A stretch of DNA of 64,000 nt, taken from an uncultured Candidatus Saccharibacteria bacterium. Its GTDB lineage: Bacteria; Patescibacteriota; Minisyncoccia; 2-02-FULL-40-12; GWA2-44-9. Position 1 is the stretch's first letter, and each line of letters starts with the position of its first letter. The stretch spans positions 564,903 through 628,902 of the forward strand of contig CAZBFM010000001.1 of the NCBI GenBank assembly GCA_964491455.1, in the 5' to 3' direction. Made by a program: the position numbers and the translations under genes. Positions 2,889 through 47,653 of this stretch are shown piece by piece. The notes under the pieces are model-generated. The model was not told the origin of the DNA and made no database searches. It worked only from the letters and a program-made list of their open reading frames with translations.

Positions 2889-3998
2889 CTACTTCGCCCA
2901 GAAGTTGAGCGTAACGCGTCCGTAGTACCGACCCGGATATTCGAATCCGATCACGGTTACCGCATAGCTGGCGCGGCTTCCGAGTGGTCCGGTAAATCCA
3001 ACACCAGCGCCACCCATCGGAAACGCAGATGCACTCATCAGCTCCCGAGCGGAAACTTTCTTAGTCACCGAAACGATAGTGCTTCGCGTTGTTCGCTGAT
3101 GGGCATCACCAACAATACGACCGACACCTGCACTGATGGATATCATCGGCTGGATGCCATGGCCACGGCCAACCGGAATCCTGAAATCACCCTCGATTCT
3201 CGCTCCCCACACGTTGACATTGGAGAGCGCCGTAGTCTCGATATCGAGGCCGCATGATGGGCACTGATATCGGGAAAACGAACCTTCGTAGATTGACTTT
3301 CGAGCAACGGTGAATCGCCACACCGTTGACGTTGGCGTGCCACGAGCAACGCCGATGTCGAAGTCTCGTCCCTGCATGCAAATCGTGCGACCAGTCATCG
3401 ACTCGAGGGCGCCACCCAGCGGCCGAGAGTCGAACTCGCCAATCATCGCACTCCCGGTGATACCCCACACAGGTATTGAGCTTTCTGGTGTGGGGACACG
3501 AGTGGGCGCGAGTGATTCGACCACTCTTCGCTCAGGCTTAGGTGATGACTGCAATTCAATGGTCCTTTGTGGAACCTCTTGATAGCTCGGGACTATCTGC
3601 ACGGGTTGCAACGGGGGAGCGATAGTGACGCCGTAGACGGGATTGCCACAATCATCACGAGCATAGAGCTGAAGCGACCCATCAGGCAGTCGATACGCCC
3701 GGAAGTAGGTGCCTTCACGTTGCGCAACGTACTTCTCGCCCCCGACCACCAGCATGCGGATGCACTGTGCGGACTCCAGCTGGACGCGGATCCTGTCGAC
3801 TCCGTTGACGGGATTTTTCGCGTTCAGGCCGAAGTACCGCGGCTCGTAATAGCGAAACTCGCCCGACTGCAAGGCCCCGTTGCAGGCAGCCAACGTAGAA
3901 AAGGTGTTCGGAGCGACCGGCGTGGTTGCATACGCATGATCCGACCATCCGATGACCAGACAGAACACACAAGCGAGAACGGCAAGCACTTTTTTCAT
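2889..3998 (-). CDS. secreted hypothetical protein
   Basis: 369 aa with a clear signal peptide (MKKVLAVLACVFCLVIGWSDHAYA) and no recognisable domain. Confidence 0.55.
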   Translation of the reverse strand: MKKVLAVLACVFCLVIGWSDHAYATTPVAPNTFSTLAACNGALQSGEFRYYEPRYFGLNAKNPVNGVDRIRVQLESAQCIRMLVVGGEKYVAQREGTYFRAYRLPDGSLQLYARDDCGNPVYGVTIAPPLQPVQIVPSYQEVPQRTIELQSSPKPERRVVESLAPTRVPTPESSIPVWGITGSAMIGEFDSRPLGGALESMTGRTICMQGRDFDIGVARGTPTSTVWRFTVARKSIYEGSFSRYQCPSCGLDIETTALSNVNVWGARIEGDFRIPVGRGHGIQPMISISAGVGRIVGDAHQRTTRSTIVSVTKKVSARELMSASAFPMGGAGVGFTGPLGSRASYAVTVIGFEYPGRYYGRVTLNFWAK

Positions 3999-26202: not shown

Positions 26203-26661
26203 CTACGCAGACGGCTTAATAACGACACGCCGGAGCGGATCTTGTCCTACGCTTTCGGTGGAAAGATCACTATAGGAAGCAAGCTCAGTGTGCACAACAC
26301 GACGCTGATAGGATGTCATTGGCTCGAGAGCTTCGGAGCGCTTTGTCTGCTGAACACGCACGGCCGTCGCATGGACTATATCGATGAGTTGTTGTGTCTG
26401 TTCGGCGCGATAGTTATTGACATCAACGGTCACCGCTCGCTGATCAAGCTCATTACGAACTGCCACCATCCGTACGATATGCTCTAATGCTTTGAGGTTT
26501 TGCCCGTTCTTTCCGATAAGCAACCTTCCGTCCTCGGCAACGCTCAGCGCAACACGTACCGCTCCATTCTCAGCGGTAACCGACAGCTCGCAGGGGATTT
26601 GCATGCACGATGTTACGTGGCGAACAAATTCTTCGATTTTTTGTGTCGAGCTTGAGCTCAT
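26203..26661 (-). CDS. jag: Jag/KhpB RNA-binding protein (KH + R3H)
   Basis: KH-like LLIGKNGQNLKALEHI and R3H YQRRVVHTELA motifs. Lies 3' of yidC as in the canonical operon. Confidence 0.8.
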   Translation of the reverse strand: MSSSSTQKIEEFVRHVTSCMQIPCELSVTAENGAVRVALSVAEDGRLLIGKNGQNLKALEHIVRMVAVRNELDQRAVTVDVNNYRAEQTQQLIDIVHATAVRVQQTKRSEALEPMTSYQRRVVHTELASYSDLSTESVGQDPLRRVVIKPSA

Positions 26662-26675
26662 GTGGCAAGTATGCC

Positions 26676-27356
26676 TTATGAACGCCGTAAATACAACTGC
26701 TCACCAATTGACCAAAGCGAGGTGGTTACCCAATAGAGAGCGAGTCCCGCTGGCAAGTTCCAGCTAATCACAATAATCATCACCGGGAGCATATACATCA
26801 TCTGCTGACCGATAGCGGCCGTCTGCGGTGAAGAAGATTGACTTGCCATAGCGGTGCGCGCCTGGAAAAACTGGGTCACTCCTGCGAGTATGGCAAGGAT
26901 CGGATTTTTCGCACTAATATCGAGGACACCGAACATCATGTGATTTATCACGCCTGGGTGCGGCATAAATGAATACAGTAGATTGAGTGTCTCCGGTTTA
27001 AATATATTAAGAAACACCTGGTACACACCTATAAGAATAGGTAGCTGCAACAGCAGAGGGACGCAACCAGCTAGGGGATTAACTCCTTTTTCTTTATAGA
27101 GTGCCATCACCGCCTCAGATTGAGCGGTTGTATTTCCTTTATGTGTTTCTTTAAGTTTCTCTATATGCGGGGCTAGCTCCGCCATCGCTTTTTGTGACTT
27201 TGCTGTTTTGATCGAGAGTGGTAGTAGTGCGGCACGCACAACGACGGTCATCGCTATGATCGCAACGCCGAGATCATGAAATCCCAATGTCGAATACAGG
27301 AGAACTGTAAGGTTGAGGATGGGTTGATAAACAAGGGATGTGAATAAAGATTTCAT
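26676..27356 (-). CDS. yidC: membrane protein insertase YidC (short form)
   Basis: Conserved NPLAGCVPLLLQLPIL region and 5 TM helices. Confidence 0.9.
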   Translation of the reverse strand: MKSLFTSLVYQPILNLTVLLYSTLGFHDLGVAIIAMTVVVRAALLPLSIKTAKSQKAMAELAPHIEKLKETHKGNTTAQSEAVMALYKEKGVNPLAGCVPLLLQLPILIGVYQVFLNIFKPETLNLLYSFMPHPGVINHMMFGVLDISAKNPILAILAGVTQFFQARTAMASQSSSPQTAAIGQQMMYMLPVMIIVISWNLPAGLALYWVTTSLWSIGEQLYLRRS

Positions 27357-27586
27357 GTGGAGTGTGTTTGTTGTGCTACAAAAAATGAGTGACAGCCAGC
27401 AAAACGTCGAACCGCTTTCATGGTGCCAATAACAACACCGTGATTTTCAATAACAGAATATGCGTACTCAGAACAGGTTGGCCATGAACAGCATCCCGAA
27501 TACGCCGGCAACAAAAAGGGAGTGGCCACGCCACTTCGCGTAATCGCTTGATACAATCGAATACCCCTCAGGAGGATGTCCTTCAT
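27353..27586 (-). CDS. yidD: membrane protein insertion efficiency factor YidD
   Basis: CxxxPSCSEY signature (CSWPTCSEYA). Confidence 0.85.
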   Translation of the reverse strand: MKDILLRGIRLYQAITRSGVATPFLLPAYSGCCSWPTCSEYAYSVIENHGVVIGTMKAVRRFAGCHSFFVAQQTHST

Positions 27587-27927
27587 GACTGAAGGATACC
27601 AGATTTCTTGAGTAGCAGCATTAGCGTTGCTTCGAGTTCATCCTGAGAGTTCGGCGTACTACGAACAGTAACAAGGAGGGAATAGCCTGTGCGTATTTTA
27701 TGCTGCGCAATGAGGTGTCTCATACATTCTAATACTTTTCGCTTCATCTCGTTTCTCATGTGCGCCTTTGCAATGCCGCTCGACGGCACCACAACAGCAA
27801 CTCTATAGTCTGCGGTAGTAGGCTGAATTCGTAAGGAAAATCCCAGCACATTACTAGGACGCGTGGAAGAAAACAGCGTTGAAATATCTTTTGCCCGCTT
27901 TAGACGATGTCGTTTTGGGAGTGCCAT
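27583..27927 (-). CDS. rnpA: ribonuclease P protein component
   Basis: Basic 114-aa protein (LPKRHRLKRAKD...), positioned between rpmH and yidD. Confidence 0.85.
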   Translation of the reverse strand: MALPKRHRLKRAKDISTLFSSTRPSNVLGFSLRIQPTTADYRVAVVVPSSGIAKAHMRNEMKRKVLECMRHLIAQHKIRTGYSLLVTVRSTPNSQDELEATLMLLLKKSGILQS

Positions 27928-27978
27928 AATGAGATATCCACTCTAACAGCACACCGCCCCTTGTTGGGGCGGTGTTGA

Positions 27979-28116
27979 CTACACAGAAAGACGTGCTCGT
28001 CCCTTTGATCTCCGACGGGCGAGAACCTTCCGACCTGACTTTGTTTCCATACGAGAAAGAAACCCATGTTTGCGGCTCCGTTTCAGTTTCTTTGGGCGAA
28101 AGCGTGTAATTTTCAT
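27979..28116 (-). CDS. rpmH: 50S ribosomal protein L34
   Basis: Hand-translated 45 aa [45 protein letters not shown]. Not in the ORF track because it is under 60 aa. Confidence 0.85.
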
Positions 28117-28325
28117 AGCGTCGTTGTGTGATATGCGCACGTAAGCGCTTCAGTGAGAAGTCTACTATGTTTGATCATGCGAGTCAATATTTACCCGCAG
28201 TTTTCCACCTGTTATAAACACTCTATCAACTTATTGAGGTTTACTGTTCGCTTGAGAGAGTTTCATAGGACTGTATACTGGCGACACATGAGAAGCACGC
28301 GTATGATTTTTCTAATTCGTAATTC

Positions 28326-29708
28326 ATGACCACTGTTGCGCCTGATGACATTTGGAAAACAGTGCTTGGTGAAATGGAACTCTCTCTTTCACGTGCGCAC
28401 TTCACCACGTGGTTCAAAAACACCAATGTGGTCACACGAGATCAAAATTCTGTGACCGTTAGCGTCCCGAATGGATTTGTGAAGGAATGGCTCGAGAGTA
28501 AATATAATCGTCAGATACTCACATCGATTCGAAAGCTCTCAAATGAGATCCGCGAAGTAAAGTATATCGTGGGACAACCAAAACCGGAGCCTCTCCGCCA
28601 AGATATATCGAAGATTATTAGCGAGAAGGAGTTTCAGGAGCAGGTTACCTATGATCAGAGTCAAGACGTTGATAAGGTTACTCATTTAAATAAGAAATAC
28701 TCATTTGATTCCTTTATTGTTGGTGGATCAAATGAATTCACCTTTGCATGTTCTCAAGCTGTTGCTGCAAATCCCGGGAAAAACTATAACCCGCTCTTCG
28801 TGTATGGGGGAGTTGGTCTTGGAAAGACCCACCTCATTCAATCAATTGGCAACCAAGTTCTGCAACAGTGGGGTGACAAGAAAGTCCTCTATACAACAGG
28901 CGAAAAACTCACTGCCACTATTGTTGAATCGATTAAAAATCGGACCGTGGAAGACGTGAAGACACAATACTCGAAACTCGACCTACTCATCATCGATGAT
29001 ATTCAGTATATCGCTGGCAAAGACAAGACACAGGAAATTGTATTCACGATTTTCAATGAACTTCACAATCGGAATAAGCAGGTAGTATGCACTTCTGATC
29101 GACCACCAAAAGCAATCCCAGCAATCACAGAGCGTCTCCAGTCTCGACTCGAAGGGGGGATGCTCGCGGAGATTAATATGCCAGACTACGAGACGCGATT
29201 AGCAATCTTAAAAACAAAGAGCCAAGAGAAAAATTGTCCACTGACCGACGAAGCCCTTTCGTATATTGCTACGCACATCCAAAAGAATGTACGAGAACTC
29301 GAGGGTGCTCTTAATAGAGTTATCGCCATAGCACAGATCTATAATCGAGTTCCTGACGTGAAAGAGATTAAGAACATTCTGAATGCATACCTTGCAGTGC
29401 CATATAGGAAGACGTCCCCGCAAGTAATACTCAAGACAGTCGCGGATTTCTTTACTATTCCTGTAGCAGACCTCACAAAACGTAGTCGCAAGAAAGAAGT
29501 TGTAAAGCCACGGCAAATTGCTATGTACTTACTACGAGAGGAAATAAAACTTTCATTCCCCGAAATCGGCCAGAAACTTGGCGGACGTGATCACTCAACC
29601 GTAATTCACGCGTGCGAGAAGATACGTCGAGAAGAAGGTGTTGATGAGCCACTCAAAAATGAGCTCACCATGATTCGACAGAGGATTTACGATTCGTTTG
29701 AGCACTAA
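28326..29708 (+). CDS. dnaA: chromosomal replication initiator DnaA
   Basis: AAA+ Walker A GGVGLGKTHL and the C-terminal DNA-binding domain (RQIAMYLLRE...GGRDHSTVIHA). Confidence 0.95.
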   Translation: MTTVAPDDIWKTVLGEMELSLSRAHFTTWFKNTNVVTRDQNSVTVSVPNGFVKEWLESKYNRQILTSIRKLSNEIREVKYIVGQPKPEPLRQDISKIISEKEFQEQVTYDQSQDVDKVTHLNKKYSFDSFIVGGSNEFTFACSQAVAANPGKNYNPLFVYGGVGLGKTHLIQSIGNQVLQQWGDKKVLYTTGEKLTATIVESIKNRTVEDVKTQYSKLDLLIIDDIQYIAGKDKTQEIVFTIFNELHNRNKQVVCTSDRPPKAIPAITERLQSRLEGGMLAEINMPDYETRLAILKTKSQEKNCPLTDEALSYIATHIQKNVRELEGALNRVIAIAQIYNRVPDVKEIKNILNAYLAVPYRKTSPQVILKTVADFFTIPVADLTKRSRKKEVVKPRQIAMYLLREEIKLSFPEIGQKLGGRDHSTVIHACEKIRREEGVDEPLKNELTMIRQRIYDSFEH

Positions 29709-29943
29709 TCTAATAACCTGTTGATGAATAGGTCTTATCTCTGTTGATAGAACGCCTTCAATGCTCCATGAAGAGGCGTATCCCTAAAAGAACCCACAGA
29801 TACTCCCCAGCTATCCCAAAGTTATACACACAGCGATTCCATTGATTCGTCAGAGCCTGTCAGGATTTTCTCACTACGTATCCCCATATCCACACCCTTA
29901 GTAGTATGTAGTAGTATTACATTATCTTCTTACTAATTATCCG
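29709..29943. promoter_or_regulatory. putative oriC region (dnaA-dnaN intergenic) with DnaA-box-like 9-mers and an AT-rich stretch
   Basis: TTATACACA (29822-29830) and ATATCCACA (29886-29894) each differ from TTATCCACA at one position. The AT-rich run gtagtattacattatcttcttactaattat follows. Genes to the left run on the minus strand and genes to the right on the plus strand. Confidence 0.5.
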
Positions 29944-31035
29944 ATGAAGATCACCGTACACAAAGAAAGGCTCCAGAGAGTACTTGGATTTGTCGAAAGA
30001 GTGACGTCCCGGAATGCGACGCTTCCTATTCTGAGTAATATTCTTTTGGTGACTGAAAATGGGAGATTACGTGTATCTGCCACAAACCTTGAAGTTGGTG
30101 TTAGTTCACTCATTGGTGCTAAGGTTGAACAAGAGGGGAAGATTGCGGTCCCTGCGAAGACACTATCTGATTTTATTCGGGGTGTTTCAGAGGAGAGTAT
30201 TAGTCTAGAGCTTCGTCAGCAAACACTCTTAGTTCGTGCAGGACGGTACCGAACGACCATCCTATGCTTTGATGCGTCCGAATACCCTATTATTCCTAAA
30301 ATCGATGGGGGCGACGTATTTGAGTTGCCCGTGGAGGACCTCAAACTTCTTATCGAAACCGTTTCTGATTCCATAGCTTCTACTGATTCACGACCTGAAC
30401 TCGCAGGTGCGTTTCTTCGTTTTGATACCAACGGCGTAACAATGGCTGCTACAGATATCTTCCGACTCGCTGAGCACAGTCGCCCTGGTGTGTTCACTCG
30501 TACTGCAACTGCGATCATTCCACGAGGTGCTATTCATGAGCTTGGGCGCATCCTTGGAGGTATCGAGGGTATGCTACAGATACGCCTCGCTGAAAACCAG
30601 GTGTCATTCTCACATGATGAGTTTGAGGTTATCTCAAGGCTTATTGACGGAAAGTATCCTGATTACAAAAAGATTATTCCTGAGCACTCGCTTGCAAGAG
30701 TTCTCGTTCGACGTGATGAGATTGAGAATGCAGCAAAAGTAGCGGCACTCTTTTCTTCAAGTATTTCCGATATCAAGATAGAGTGCTCCAGTGAAGAGAT
30801 TTCAATTAGTGGCAAGAATTCCAGTAAGGGCGAGGCATTCGCTGGAGTGGAATCGAATTTAAAAGGGGAGTCATTTGATGTCTCGATGAATTTTCATTAC
30901 TTCCTCGATGGATTAAAGGTTATTCCTAGTGATAAGGTAGTCATGGAGTATACAGGTAAGGGGAGTCCGTTTGTGCTTCGACCAAACGCGGATGATACAC
31001 ATATTGTGTATTTGATTATGCCCTTAAGGAATTAG
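29944..31035 (+). CDS. dnaN: DNA polymerase III beta sliding clamp
   Basis: 363 aa with the typical N-terminus MKITVHKERL...LPILSNILL. Confidence 0.9.
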   Translation: MKITVHKERLQRVLGFVERVTSRNATLPILSNILLVTENGRLRVSATNLEVGVSSLIGAKVEQEGKIAVPAKTLSDFIRGVSEESISLELRQQTLLVRAGRYRTTILCFDASEYPIIPKIDGGDVFELPVEDLKLLIETVSDSIASTDSRPELAGAFLRFDTNGVTMAATDIFRLAEHSRPGVFTRTATAIIPRGAIHELGRILGGIEGMLQIRLAENQVSFSHDEFEVISRLIDGKYPDYKKIIPEHSLARVLVRRDEIENAAKVAALFSSSISDIKIECSSEEISISGKNSSKGEAFAGVESNLKGESFDVSMNFHYFLDGLKVIPSDKVVMEYTGKGSPFVLRPNADDTHIVYLIMPLRN

Positions 31036-34972: not shown

Positions 34973-35446
34973 TCAATATGTTTTTGCAGTTGCACAGCAG
35001 AGCGCAAGCGCGAGACCATCTGCTGCGTCATCGGGGGATACCTTGACCTTAATTCGAAGGAGCATTTGAATCATGTCTTGCATTTGCCGTTTCGTTGCTT
35101 TTCCGTGCCCGCACACGGTGAGCTTTACCTGTTGGGGTGTGAATTCTAATACAGGAATTCCCATTTGTTTTAGTACTAACATGATGACACCACGCATCTC
35201 AGATACAGACATAACCGTCCGCTGGTTGTTCATAAAGAATAATCGCTCAACACCAGCGCTGTCTGGTTTGTATTCTTCAATAAGCGCTCGAAGGTTTGCC
35301 GCTGTTGCAGCTTTATCTTCAGAGGCTTGCACACCCGGGTTTTCAATGATGCCCCAGGCGAGTGACTGAAATGAGCCCCGATGTTCTTCGATGATCCCAT
35401 ACCCAATACGCGTAGTGCCTGGATCGATGCCAAGGTAGCGCGTCAT
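34973..35446 (-). CDS. ruvC: Holliday junction resolvase RuvC
   Basis: N-terminus YLGIDPGTTRIGYGI and the catalytic acidic residues. Confidence 0.9.
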   Translation of the reverse strand: MTRYLGIDPGTTRIGYGIIEEHRGSFQSLAWGIIENPGVQASEDKAATAANLRALIEEYKPDSAGVERLFFMNNQRTVMSVSEMRGVIMLVLKQMGIPVLEFTPQQVKLTVCGHGKATKRQMQDMIQMLLRIKVKVSPDDAADGLALALCCATAKTY

Positions 35447-36147
35447 GAAAGGTCGGCATTGGTTACTACGGATTGCACGTCGTCGTGATCATCGATTGCT
35501 TCGAGGAATGCAAGAACCTTTTCTTTTGTAGTTGAGTCTTCAAGCGTAATCCAAGTTGTGGGGGAGAGTTCTATTTCAGATTCCATAACTATTGATCCAA
35601 GCGATGCCTTTACTGCTTCAAAATTCTCGGGCGTTGTCGTCACGAGAACCTCATCCTGCTCAACTGATACATCGTCTGCTCCTGCATCGATGGCAGATAA
35701 TTGCATAGCCTCATTCGTTGTTGCGGGAAGGTGAATGTATCCTGCTTTATGAAACATCCACATTACCGCCCCCTGGCCAGCCATATGAGCGCCGAATGTG
35801 CCCGCTAGCTTCTTGAGGTCATTGATGGTGCGATTGCTGTTGTTGGTGATTGCAGATACGATGAATGCGGTATTTGCGGGGCCAATGAATTCAATTTGTA
35901 TTTCATATAACGCCTCGGCGTCTTTATCGGTGACTCTTCGAATGGCACGTTGAATGTTCTCGTTGGGCATATTAACCGCACGAGCGCGTTCAATCTCTCC
36001 CTTGAGACGGAGGTTCGTTGAGGGGTCGGGATTGGCTCGAGCGGCAATGGAGATTGCCTGCGCTAGCTTGCCGAAAATCTTGCCTTTCTTTGAATCGGCA
36101 ATCGCTTTCTTGTGCTTAATTTGTGACCACTTTGAATGACCGGACAT
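35443..36147 (-). CDS. yebC: YebC/PmpR family DNA-binding transcriptional regulator
   Basis: N-terminus MSGHSKWSQIKHKKAIADSKKGKIF. Confidence 0.9.
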   Translation of the reverse strand: MSGHSKWSQIKHKKAIADSKKGKIFGKLAQAISIAARANPDPSTNLRLKGEIERARAVNMPNENIQRAIRRVTDKDAEALYEIQIEFIGPANTAFIVSAITNNSNRTINDLKKLAGTFGAHMAGQGAVMWMFHKAGYIHLPATTNEAMQLSAIDAGADDVSVEQDEVLVTTTPENFEAVKASLGSIVMESEIELSPTTWITLEDSTTKEKVLAFLEAIDDHDDVQSVVTNADLS

Positions 36148-36174
36148 AGCGAACCAAGAATACCCGAGGTTGCG

Positions 36175-37197
36175 TTAGAAATCCAGGTCGAGTGTGTCGG
36201 GGCTTGGAACGCCAATATGATCACGCCCAGCTTGTGTGATAACCCTGCCCTTCGTGGTACGAGCGATAAATCCTAAGCGCATAAGGTAGGGTTCATAAAC
36301 GTCTTCAATAGTTGTCTCTTCTTCTGATACCGTTGCCGCGATCGATTTAAGACCCACAGGGCCACCCGCAAACGTCACTGCGATAGTGCGTAGAATTTTG
36401 CGGTCCGTTTCCTCAAGTCCTTGTGGATCAACTTCGAGCATCGCCAACGCCGTTGTCGCGGTTGCCTCATCTACGGTGGTAATATTGTGTACTTGAGCAT
36501 AATCGCGAACGCGCTTGAGGAGGCGATTGGCGACACGTGGAGTGGCTCGAGCGGAGCGGGCGATAAGACTGAGTGCTGGTTGTGTGATTACTAGCCCGAG
36601 TAAGGATGCTGAACGCGTGATGATGCGCTCGATTTCTAGTGGCTCGTAGTATTCGAGTCTAAAATTTGAACCGAACCGCGAACGAAACGGAGCAGAAAGC
36701 ATGGAGATCTTTGTTGTTGCCGCTACGAGTGTGAAGTGGGGCAGATCAATCTGCAGGGTCTTTGCGGCGTTACCCTTTCCAATGACGATATCGAGCTTAA
36801 AATTCTCCATAGCTGGATAGATAACCTCTTCAACCATCTTATTGAGACGATGCACCTCATCGATGAAGAGGACGTCACCATCCGATAGTCCGGTGAGGAT
36901 AGAGCCGACATCACCAGCCTTTTCAAGGGCCGTCCCGGACGTCATACGGAGGTTGCTATTGAGCTCTTTAGCAACGAGGTATGCGAGGGTGGTCTTTCCA
37001 AGACCCGATGGACCATGAAAGAGGATGTGCTCAGGAGTTTCGTTGCGCTTTCTGGCCGCTCCTAGCACAATACGTAGGTTTTCCTTTGTTTTTTCTTGTC
37101 CGATGTATTCACTGAAATCTCTTGGTCGCAGGGTAAGATCAAGAACTTGGTCGTCTTGACCAACGAAGGGCTCGGTTTGAGGGGTCTTGACATTCAT
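36175..37197 (-). CDS. ruvB: Holliday junction branch migration helicase RuvB
   Basis: Walker A GPSGLGKTTLA and Walker B LFIDEVHRL. Confidence 0.95.
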   Translation of the reverse strand: MNVKTPQTEPFVGQDDQVLDLTLRPRDFSEYIGQEKTKENLRIVLGAARKRNETPEHILFHGPSGLGKTTLAYLVAKELNSNLRMTSGTALEKAGDVGSILTGLSDGDVLFIDEVHRLNKMVEEVIYPAMENFKLDIVIGKGNAAKTLQIDLPHFTLVAATTKISMLSAPFRSRFGSNFRLEYYEPLEIERIITRSASLLGLVITQPALSLIARSARATPRVANRLLKRVRDYAQVHNITTVDEATATTALAMLEVDPQGLEETDRKILRTIAVTFAGGPVGLKSIAATVSEEETTIEDVYEPYLMRLGFIARTTKGRVITQAGRDHIGVPSPDTLDLDF

Positions 37198-37292
37198 ATA
37201 AAAATAGAATAGAATAGTAGTAGCAGCCCAGGTAAAGGGTCAGTGCTTTTTTCTTTGTTTGGTAACCCTCGCCAGGGTTTCGTAGTCTCAAA

Positions 37293-37458
37293 GGACCTCT
37301 ATAATCTGTAGGCAACTGAGTCCAATGCTCCACGCACGACGACTCAGTCGGGATACTCTCTTAGCTCGGAAGATTTGGTTTCGACTGGATCTCTCCTCGG
37401 AATTATCCTGTCCCGCGGCCCTATGGTTGCGGATCTTGCCTACAGGTTATAAAGGTCC
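37293..37458. ncRNA. candidate structured RNA, or a MITE-like element, closed by a 21-nt long-range inverted repeat
   Basis: GGACCTCTATAATCTGTAGGC (37293-37313) pairs with GCCTACAGGTTATAAAGGTCC (37438-37458), 20 of 21 positions including one G-U pair. An internal 8-bp hairpin ACTGAGTC...GACTCAGT is also present. Confidence 0.3.
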
Positions 37459-37492
37459 TTTTCGCTGCTCCAGCGCCCTGCAGAGGGCTGCC

Positions 37493-39178
37493 TTAACCTA
37501 GCACTCTATGAATCTCCTCGATTGATGTGACTCCATCAATCAACTTTAGGTACCCGTCTTGCACCATCGTGACCATCCCTTCTTTGATTGCCAGGTCACG
37601 AATGTCTGTAACGGATGCCTCGTCTAAAATAAGTCGCTCCATAGCTCTGGTCACTTCAAACACCTCATACACTCCCACACGACCCTTGTAGCCGATTGAA
37701 TTGCACTCTGCGCACCCGCCAGGTCCATACAATGTCACGGTATCGAGCTTTGGAAGAGAGAATCGCTCCGCGATAGGGGAGATCTGTGCTGAGAGTTTTT
37801 GGGAATCTGCCTCCGAGAGTGTGACTGGTTTTTTGCAGTGTTCGCAAAGACGGCGAACGAGTCGTTGACCCATCGCCATTGTGAGCGCTGGGGCGACTGT
37901 GTCCGGCCGAACGCCGATATCAACGAGACGAGGTATGGTGCCAGCGGCGTCGTTAGTGTGAATCGTTGAGAGCACCATGTGACCCGTGAGAGCGGCTTCA
38001 AGGGCGATACTCGCTGTTTCGAGGTCGCGGATTTCACCGATGAGAATAATGTCGGGGTCTTGTCGTACGATTGCGCGTAGCCCTCCCGCGAATGTATAGC
38101 CCTTCGATGGTTCTACTTGGGTTTGGTTGACTCCCTTGATGTGATACTCGATAGGATCTTCCACGGTGATGATCTTCATATCGGGAGTGTTGAGGAAGTT
38201 CAAAAATGCATAGAGTGTCGTGGTTTTTCCAGAACCTGTGGGTCCGGTGGTGAGGAGGGTGCCTTGTGGGCGCGCGAGCAGTTCTTTCACTTTCTCGAGT
38301 ACGTCAGTACGCATGCCAAGGTCTTCAAGTTTTGCTTGAATGCCACGAGGGTCGAGCAAGCGCATCACAATAGACTCACCATATTCACTCGGAAGAACAG
38401 AAACACGAACTTCGATAGCGATGTCACTTTGACGGATGGTGAATCGGCCATCTTGCGGCGCCTTGGTGATGTTGAGCTTCATCTTGGAGAGCACTTTAAC
38501 GCGGCTCAACACGCGCTGATATCGCTCCTTATCAATTGTAGCGACTTCATGGAGAAGACCATCGAGACGATAGCGGAGACGTACAAGGTCTGATTCTGGT
38601 TCGAAGTGAATATCCGACGAGCGAGTCGCGAGTGCGCCAGCGATGAGCATTTCAAATAATTCAGTGACGGGAATATCAGCGAGCTTTGTTTTGATATCGG
38701 TGATAGTCTTGATTGACTGTGATGCTTTTGCAAGCGCGGCGTCATCAACATCAATAGCGCCCACCTCGAATACATCAGCGGTGGTGATGGTCGCGTAGCG
38801 TTGCCAAATCGACTCCATGGTGCGGAGGTCTACGATGAGGATCTTATTGGTGGGATATTGAGTGGTAATACTCGAAATGACCTCTTGCGCCTCTGGTGTG
38901 CGTGGGTCGAGCGCGGCAATTATCGCTGTCGCTGCTTGTACTTGAATGAGCGCAACGCCAGATGCGCGAGATTGGCTTTCTGGTACGTGCTTGAGAGCTG
39001 ATTGGTCTACAAGGAGTGCGTGAGAATCGAGAAAGGGCAAGCCAAGTTCTGTGGCGAGAGCTTGCGCGGTGCGAGTTTGCTCGTGTTCACTGATCTGTGC
39101 GAGCTTCTTATCGAGCTCAGCCGAGGCGTTGTTGGTGGTAGGGGGGACGGTGTTCGTCGACATATCTGAAGCCACCAT
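37493..39178 (-). CDS. pilB: GspE/PilB-family secretion ATPase (type IV pilus assembly ATPase-like)
   Basis: Walker A TGPTGSGKTT, Asp box, Walker B ILIGEIRD, and the C-terminal tetracysteine (CEHC...CAEC). Confidence 0.85.
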   Translation of the reverse strand: MVASDMSTNTVPPTTNNASAELDKKLAQISEHEQTRTAQALATELGLPFLDSHALLVDQSALKHVPESQSRASGVALIQVQAATAIIAALDPRTPEAQEVISSITTQYPTNKILIVDLRTMESIWQRYATITTADVFEVGAIDVDDAALAKASQSIKTITDIKTKLADIPVTELFEMLIAGALATRSSDIHFEPESDLVRLRYRLDGLLHEVATIDKERYQRVLSRVKVLSKMKLNITKAPQDGRFTIRQSDIAIEVRVSVLPSEYGESIVMRLLDPRGIQAKLEDLGMRTDVLEKVKELLARPQGTLLTTGPTGSGKTTTLYAFLNFLNTPDMKIITVEDPIEYHIKGVNQTQVEPSKGYTFAGGLRAIVRQDPDIILIGEIRDLETASIALEAALTGHMVLSTIHTNDAAGTIPRLVDIGVRPDTVAPALTMAMGQRLVRRLCEHCKKPVTLSEADSQKLSAQISPIAERFSLPKLDTVTLYGPGGCAECNSIGYKGRVGVYEVFEVTRAMERLILDEASVTDIRDLAIKEGMVTMVQDGYLKLIDGVTSIEEIHRVLG

Positions 39179-47457: not shown

Positions 47458-47579
47458 ACGATCGAGTAGCTTCACGAGACCTCCTTGGTAAATGACTAAA
47501 AATATAATAACAGCAAATATTATATGAGTCAAATCACGCACACAAGTCCGACACCGGGGAGGTATCGGACTTGTTATGG

Positions 47580-47653
47580 TGGGCCCGCCTGGACTCGAAC
47601 CAGGGACATCCAAGGTATAAGCTTGGCGCTCTAACCAGCTGAGCTACGGGCCC
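47580..47653 (-). tRNA. tRNA-Ile (anticodon TAT)
   Basis: Anticodon stem CCAAG/CTTGG with loop CTTATAC, A73, and standard D and T arms. Confidence 0.65.

Follow-up and report, generated by a model that had tools for sequence, protein, structure and literature searches.

The question raised by this locus is what the 295-nt spacer between ruvB and pilB (37198-37492) encodes, and on which strand, in a window (the whole stretch of 64,000 nucleotides that was analysed) in which both flanking genes are on the - strand. The spacer is exactly as it was given in a preliminary description of this DNA, which also reported a 21-bp long-range helix within it. The helix is real, but its length was understated, as the arms are 26 nt each (37290-37315 and 37436-37461) and 92% complementary, with 24 Watson-Crick pairs, one U-G pair and one C-A mismatch when counted by hand from the sequence. 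The 21-mer arm occurs at only two sites in 64 kb, which are the two arms themselves, against an expectation of 0 in 100 shuffles, and a search of the window that allowed up to 3 mismatches matched nothing beyond these arms. An 8-bp internal hairpin (ACTGAGTC/GACTCAGT, 37315-37322 and 37341-37348) and a repeated CTCGGAA motif (37365-37371 and 37396-37402), both pointed out at the same time, are present as well. However, the argument that a G-U pair in the arms speaks for RNA fails for this sequence, as the situation is symmetric: the + strand has a U-G and a C-A, and the - strand has a G-U and an A-C. Because each strand thus carries one wobble and one mismatch, this sequence taken singly tells neither whether the element is RNA or DNA nor which strand is meant, and it is the comparative data that decide.

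The + strand of the element folds at -80 kcal/mol (z = -7.4), with none of 200 shuffles folding equally well, and the fold of the - strand is weaker (-72.6 kcal/mol, z = -5.8). In the + strand fold the closing helix, designated P1, encloses three hairpins, P2, P3 and P4, and the two CTCGGAA copies are located on opposite strands of P3. The predicted elements and the two flanking genes are, in the order of their coordinates:

36175-37197, - strand: ruvB, which begins at 37197, is the first gene of ruvB-yebC-ruvC and is the divergent neighbour of the RNA
37187-37192, + strand: putative -35 box TTGACA, overlapping ruvB codons 2-4 on the other strand, in a promoter that agrees with the consensus at 11 of 12 positions
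37210-37215, + strand: putative -10 box TAGAAT, after a 17-nt spacer from the -35 box
37222-37289, + strand: putative 5' leader, variable in length and sequence and not conserved even among close relatives
37290-37464, + strand: whole RNA, a covariance-model match of ~175 nt (180.8 bits, E = 5e-45, and 52.7 bits on the - strand, scored with a model that was itself built on the + strand)
37290-37315, + strand: 5' arm of P1, with a nearly invariant upper half, UAAUCUGUAGGCAA
37316-37347, + strand: P2, a hairpin of 7-8 bp with a small inner stem, 7/7 pairs compensatory
37350-37409, + strand: P3, an irregular hairpin of considerable length that is the best-conserved core, 16/20 pairs compensatory over three segments
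37413-37432, + strand: P4, a hairpin of 8 bp with a CUAU loop and of variable length, 8/8 pairs compensatory and 87% of cells paired
37436-37461, + strand: 3' arm of P1, which pairs with 37290-37315
37459-37462, + strand: U-tract at or after the 3' arm of P1, with the pilB stop codon 31 nt further on, on the other strand
37493-39178, - strand: pilB/gspE-type ATPase gene (T2SSE), with its stop at 37493, the convergent neighbour of the RNA

Comparison with homologues showed that the conserved part is ~170 nt long (range of homologue lengths 141-187 nt, median 174) and that at both ends the boundaries of sequence conservation coincide with the base of P1. P1 is a nearly perfect helix of 24-26 bp, for which 19 of the 23 model pairs show compensatory changes and 95-97% of cells are paired, and its most conserved portion is the upper half, (U)AAUCUGUAGGCAA / UUGCCUACAGRUUA. 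It leads into a four-way junction that is compact, its linkers being 0-4 nt long. The core of P3 is conserved far above the level of the flanking spacer. At its base is a near-invariant G-U pair (37350-37409), kept in 95/99 sequences, and within the hairpin G124-U155 and G125-C154 are found in 98/99 and 99/99 sequences, respectively. P3 also contains an asymmetric internal loop, in which UCUUAG... lies opposite UCG, and tandem G-U pairs (UUGG/CUGG, 37375-37378 with 37385-37388) located beneath the tetraloop, which in the window is UUCG at 37380-37383; the CUCCUCGGAAUUAUCC strand is among the most conserved features. Two motifs considered for P3, a T-loop at its tip and a K-turn, were rejected, since the positions concerned covary as Watson-Crick pairs. 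P2 is absent in two distant members (L049 and L050), which thereby have a three-way junction, and is apparently absent also in L051, L053 and L066, as judged by reading their sequences. Such P2-less members have ~1-8 unpaired nt at the 5' side of the junction and a hairpin at its 3' side.

The covariance model, R1, was built from the homologue alignment and comprises 175 positions and 58 pairs. Among 99 distinct sequences, 93.9% of the cells can pair and 50/58 pairs show compensatory changes; the corresponding values for a 50-sequence alignment are 94.8% and 46/58. When the 99-sequence alignment was subjected to controls, 76.6% of cells were paired in column shuffles and 36-50% when the partners were slid, the covariation score was 0.553 compared with 0.221 in shuffles, and none of 500 shuffles reached any of the measures. 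Mutual information, for which 38 of the top 60 column pairs were model pairs, added one P1 pair and the inner stem of P2. It did not provide any convincing pseudoknot or tertiary pairs, the rest being register shifts apart from a weak signal between columns 103 and 246. The comparative data also determine the strand. In the 99 sequences, 768 cells are G-U or U-G as opposed to 95 that are A-C or C-A (337 and 32 in a separate count), and for P3 alone the numbers are 448 and 17. This excess of G-U over A-C indicates that the paired molecule is the + strand of the window, opposite to ruvB and pilB, and the invariant G-U pairs, which would become A-C mismatches on the - strand, place the RNA on the + strand as well. 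The structured small RNA that had been suggested as one of two plausible identities is thus borne out by covariation and by strand-specific G-U pairs, and also by a conserved promoter of its own.

The orientation of this promoter agrees with the strand given by the G-U counts. A TTGACA box, a spacer of 16-18 nt and TAnnnT were found at 89 of the 95 homologous loci with enough upstream sequence, and of these 89 promoters 88 have the perfect TTGACA and 85 a 17-nt spacer; the -10 box occurs as TAAAAT, TAGAAT, TACAAT or TATAAT. We infer that in the window transcription starts near 37222. Within 37187-37197, the -35 TTGACA is the reverse complement of ruvB codons 2-4 (ATG AAT GTC AAG), and promoter and coding constraints therefore coincide at these positions. 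An overlap of the -35 box with the first ruvB codons exists at 42/89 loci including the window, the complement of the start codon lying 2-3 nt past the -35 box. A TATAAT within the 5' arm of P1 was rejected as a -10 box: its second position is variable and changes in concert with the 3' arm, and the part of the arm that precedes TATAAT is also base-paired in the RNA. P1 follows the -10 box at a distance of 3-82 nt (median 35), and the 5' leader before P1 is probably trimmed, which fits with the absence of leader conservation. Of the 58 leaders of at least 25 nt, 17 have a terminator-like hairpin followed by a U-run (AAUCCCG...CGGGAUUUU) between promoter and P1, for instance in L005 (~3940-3975), L010, L028 and L037, and similar ones occur in the leaders of the group-2 loci described below; these hairpins could be sites of attenuation or of processing, or could shield the 5' end. 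At the other end, a run of at least 3 T follows P1 in 53/99 homologues, the window having UUUU, and the preceding stem-loop is far larger than that of a normal terminator. The 3' end of the RNA is 1-25 nt from the end of the PilB match in most contigs.

The distribution of the RNA was followed through its position next to ruvB. A protein search with RuvB gave 80 genome loci, the closest of which belong to CPR/Patescibacteria MAGs that carry the labels Yanofskybacteria, Paceibacterota or Parcubacteria and include one with 99% identity. An nhmmer search with the element as the sole query found it upstream of ruvB at 44 of the 80 loci, and model R1 matched 56 of the 60 Patescibacteria loci (class Paceibacteria, 'Yanofskybacteria'), 50 strongly and 6 more weakly. 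All 56 matches are within the pilB-ruvB spacer and on the strand opposite to both genes, and relatives whose RuvB is as little as 53% identical have it at the same site. R1 had no match at any of the 20 ruvB loci from outside the CPR (Dehalococcoidia, Clostridia). In a pattern scan of metagenome contigs, 120 stretches were retrieved, of which 89 (60 + 29) were strong model matches, and RuvB was almost always encoded divergently upstream and PilB convergently downstream of the RNA. The RNA is also kept where other genes replace ruvB upstream (L114, L119 and L121) and where 1-1.4 kb of unrelated genes part it from pilB. In the contigs with such additional genes (L142, L098, L122 and L093), the PilB homologue is ~1010 aa as against 561 aa, and one of the genes (L142, 4433-4891) looks like an IS200/IS605-type transposase, by its N-terminal sequence only. 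No shared partner gene was found, the ORFs beside the RNA in the broken-synteny contigs being unrelated to one another. The 64-kb window contains a single copy, and ~200 loci have one each. A pattern scan of viral contigs yielded 2 pattern matches and no model match, and blastn against phages and plasmids gave no match. The RNA gene is single-copy, strictly syntenic and vertically inherited.

The four Patescibacteria loci that complete the set of 60 contain the RNA only as a variant, termed group 2, so that the RNA or this variant is present at 60/60. Group-2 RNAs are clearly related and were found in the pilB-ruvB spacers of L056, L057, L061, L062 and L078, while one of the 6 weaker R1 matches is also a group-2 locus (L079); the loci include a Kaiserbacteria MAG. 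The closing helix of group 2 is 25-30 bp long, its top being CUCUAAGCAA/UUGCUUAGAG as compared with CUGUAGGCAA/UUGCCUACAG in the window RNA, and the branched core of ~95 nt folds with z values of -6.6 to -9.9. The promoter is of an equally strong type with an extended -10 (TGnTAGTAT). Group-2 RNA had no match in Rfam. With five sequences only, the fold proposed for its core is uncertain.

In the surroundings of the RNA gene, the order ruvB-yebC-ruvC occupies 34973-37197, and ruvA, which in many bacteria is placed where the RNA gene stands here, is not directly upstream of ruvB. On the + strand no gene is located downstream of the RNA, where there is only pilB in antisense. A short hairpin of the - strand, GCCCU CUGC AGGGC (in 37465-37492), comes directly after the pilB stop but has no U-run, and pilB thus shows no evident terminator ahead of the region antisense to the RNA gene. 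A - strand sigma-70-like promoter for ruvB was not found in the spacer of the window, and some spacers are only ~30 nt. Elsewhere in the window, 26203-31035 looks like the neighbourhood of a replication origin, with a minimum of the cumulative GC skew at ~28-30 kb. The - strand there carries jag/khpB, yidC, a yidD-like ORF, an rnpA-like ORF (27583-27927) and an rpmH-like ORF (27979-28140), which face dnaA (28326-29708) and dnaN (29944-31035); matches to the DnaA box are not enriched in the window. The rnpA-like ORF implies that an RNA-based RNase P is encoded elsewhere in the genome. ARAGORN and Rfam together detected 16 tRNA genes in the 64 kb, including a tRNA-Ile with the anticodon UAU (e.g. 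47577-47653), a density that fits a very small genome.

The RNA was compared with the 4227 families of Rfam 15, using gathering thresholds for the window and E<=10 for the region and its homologues. At gathering thresholds only tRNAs were detected in the whole window. At E<=10 there was no match in 37100-37600, nor at the RNA coordinates of 15 divergent homologue loci, and ARAGORN found no tRNA or tmRNA at 37198-37492. The covariance-model scan proposed in the preliminary description has therefore been run without matching any family, which leaves the RNA uncatalogued, and its statement that the element is not a tRNA, tmRNA, RNase P RNA or SRP RNA agrees with these searches. In full-text searches of the literature on CPR, Patescibacteria, Parcubacteria and Paceibacteria, no description of this RNA or of lineage-specific ncRNAs was found.

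We regard it as close to certain that a real structured RNA gene is present on the + strand of the window, and we see in the RNA a strong candidate for a class of ncRNA that is new and belongs specifically to one major lineage of the CPR (GTDB class Paceibacteria). As to the nature of the RNA, we consider it rather probable that it is an independently transcribed, stable, trans-acting and probably protein-binding RNA of an uncatalogued family; the part of this reading that concerns action in trans and protein binding has, taken by itself, about an even chance. The predicted transcript would be read from the + strand by a sigma-70-type promoter, divergently from ruvB and convergently with pilB, and P1 together with the U-tract at 37459-37462 is likely to end it as an intrinsic terminator. 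P1 would probably serve in addition as a double-stranded handle for stability or processing, comparable to an RNase III-type stalk, and the RNA would presumably be abundant and stable. The invariant features, namely GGCAA/UUGCC at the top of P1, the junction, the basal G-U pair of P3, its asymmetric internal loop and the tandem G-U pairs near its tip, could form a surface for recognition by protein, so that the RNA would be a subunit or ligand of a housekeeping-type ribonucleoprotein in trans and not a cis regulator. The more specific proposal that it is a class-wide Paceibacteria housekeeping RNA, a subunit of an unknown ribonucleoprotein with no known bacterial counterpart, appears plausible to us, at somewhat short of an even chance. 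Such an RNA would be recognised by way of the invariant P1 top, the junction and the P3 loops, in bacteria whose genomes are among the smallest known. More speculatively, a four-way-junction RNA beside ruvB-yebC-ruvC could act as a decoy or regulator of the junction-DNA machinery, an idea that comes from the fixed position of such a junction next to these genes with no ruvA immediately upstream. Three observations count against the reading that we prefer: the genes beside the RNA at sites of broken synteny have no relation to each other, ~30% of the long leaders contain a terminator-like hairpin, an unexpected trait in a plain constitutive RNA gene, and a clear U-tract follows P1 in only half of the homologues. 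Furthermore, the RNA is antisense to any read-through from pilB and to the 5' part of the ruvB transcript, and a cis-antisense contribution is therefore possible.

That the element is mainly a local device of cis-antisense or transcription interference is unlikely in our judgement. In such a device the promoter would fire against the pilB-to-ruvB direction, the RNA would pair with read-through pilB-ruvB transcripts, and P1 would be a bidirectional terminator separating the two genes. This would suit an RNA gene that lies on the opposite strand between two co-directional genes, with its -35 box over ruvB codons 2-4 at nearly half of the promoter-bearing loci, a 3' end so close to the pilB stop in most contigs that no room is left for a pilB terminator, no sigma-70-like ruvB promoter in the spacer, and a reverse strand that also folds well. 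However, a simple antisense RNA or terminator would work without a four-way junction, invariant loops and G-U pairs kept on one strand only, and the RNA persists without ruvB as a neighbour or with pilB more than 1 kb away, while its P3 core is conserved far better than the spacer around it. An element of the - strand pilB-ruvB mRNA, be it a terminator, the 5' leader of ruvB or a site of processing between the cistrons, would likewise be at home between two - strand genes and directly upstream of ruvB, and the - strand has a stable fold of its own; nevertheless, we consider this explanation remote, as the 768 G-U cells would turn into A-C mismatches, the conserved promoter points the opposite way, and the model score on the + strand is more than three times that on the - strand, though with a model built on the + strand. 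The mobile inverted-repeat element or MITE that had been offered as the other plausible identity of this DNA is refuted. It would account for 26-nt terminal inverted repeats ~120 nt apart. The signs by which it was to be recognized, additional copies and target-site duplications, were both absent, however, with a single copy in the window and one per locus elsewhere, and no direct repeats flanking the arms. Moreover, the arms covary as a helix, the element is syntenic in 60 related ruvB loci and keeps its site at RuvB identities as low as 53%, and no match exists in the phage, plasmid and viral collections searched.

Two further explanations assign the RNA to families that are already known. 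An extremely divergent form of a universal RNA (SRP RNA, RNase P RNA, 5S rRNA, tmRNA or Y RNA) would explain the housekeeping behaviour, namely a class-wide, single-copy gene with a consensus promoter, and an RNase P RNA is indeed expected somewhere in a genome with an rnpA-like ORF; in view of the negative Rfam (E<=10) and ARAGORN searches and of the following details, it is very improbable. SRP (4.5S) RNA was rejected because the loop of P3 is UUCG or variable and not the GNRA of helix 8, and because there is no AGCA motif. For RNase P RNA the molecule is too small (~174 nt, usually >270) and a P4-type pseudoknot signal is absent, and none of the 5S rRNA motifs that we know are visible in the sequence. 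A riboswitch or other cis-regulatory 5' leader was rejected as well, since the RNA strand is opposite to both ruvB and pilB and only pilB antisense lies downstream. A highly divergent 6S-type RNA, which would sequester sigma-70 RNA polymerase by mimicry of promoter DNA, with P1 as the downstream duplex, P3 as the upstream duplex and P2 and P4 as hairpins of the bubble strands, is quite unlikely, although 6S is the common housekeeping RNA that is most often missed by homology searches. Its favourable points are the size of ~170 nt with paired ends, the two long helices about a central domain, the strong housekeeping-type promoter, the occurrence as a single copy through the whole class, and the distant members without P2, in which unpaired nucleotides lie 5' of the junction and a hairpin 3' of it. 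Thus, of the 6S-like closing helix mentioned as a possibility in the preliminary description, the size and the pairing of the 5' and 3' ends hold, but the central bubble is absent: the linkers are 0-4 nt, and P2 and P4, which occupy the positions of the bubble strands, covary at 7/7 and 8/8 pairs. In addition, the stems of 6S RNA are irregular, whereas P1 is an A-form helix that is almost perfect, and neither the 6S nor the 6S-Flavo model matched at E<=10, be it in the window region or at the RNA in the 15 divergent homologue loci.

A trans-acting RNA of an uncatalogued family would be of interest beyond this locus. CPR/Patescibacteria represent a large share of bacterial diversity, with genomes of ~1 Mb or less, and an RNA that all examined members of an entire class keep at a fixed locus, with a consensus promoter and ~50 covarying pairs, is very likely important in such a reduced cell. 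The covariance model and ~150 sequences with clear boundaries constitute a family resource from which studies of partners, processing and structure can start, and the annotation of CPR genomes, in which the pilB-ruvB spacer is currently blank, would gain from it. If the RNA were a true 6S analogue or part of a new ribonucleoprotein, the minimal RNA toolkit of episymbionts would have to be rethought.

Among known systems, 6S RNA (SsrS, RF00013; 6S-Flavo, RF01685) shares with the window RNA a length of ~150-200 nt, a long closing stem in which the two ends pair, another long stem of irregular build, and a strong promoter of its own at a single-copy, lineage-wide gene, and differs in having a large single-stranded central bubble where the window RNA has a tight four-way junction. 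The precursor processing stalks of rRNA, which are RNase III substrates, resemble the locus in their strong promoter, non-conserved leader and flanking helix of ~25 bp. In contrast to them, the window RNA encloses ~120 nt that contain no rRNA, and the upper half of its helix is conserved in sequence; this upper half of P1 probably belongs to the mature RNA. With Y RNAs (YrlA and the Deinococcus Y RNA) it has in common a long terminal stem formed from both ends, a multi-branched core and a 3' U-run, but it has no match to Y RNA in Rfam and no T-arm-like module, the tip of P3 covaries as a plain stem with a tetraloop, and neither rsr nor rtcB is among the immediate neighbours. MITEs share the terminal inverted repeats and the size of ~170 bp, whereas the window RNA is single-copy and syntenic, lacks target-site duplications and has arms whose covariation is that of a helix in RNA. 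The general marks of a stand-alone ncRNA gene, namely covariation, strand-specific G-U pairs, its own promoter and conserved boundaries, are all present here. In this respect the RNA is comparable to orphan lineage-specific structured RNAs such as Bacteroidales-1, Chloroflexi-1, Acido-1 and the raiA motif, which also are stand-alone, covarying, multi-stem and lineage-restricted, with their own promoter and terminator. These orphan RNAs have no Rfam 15 match to the window RNA and come from lineages other than the CPR Paceibacteria, and the window RNA is set apart from them by an unusually long closing helix (24-30 bp) and by its fixed site between pilB and ruvB.
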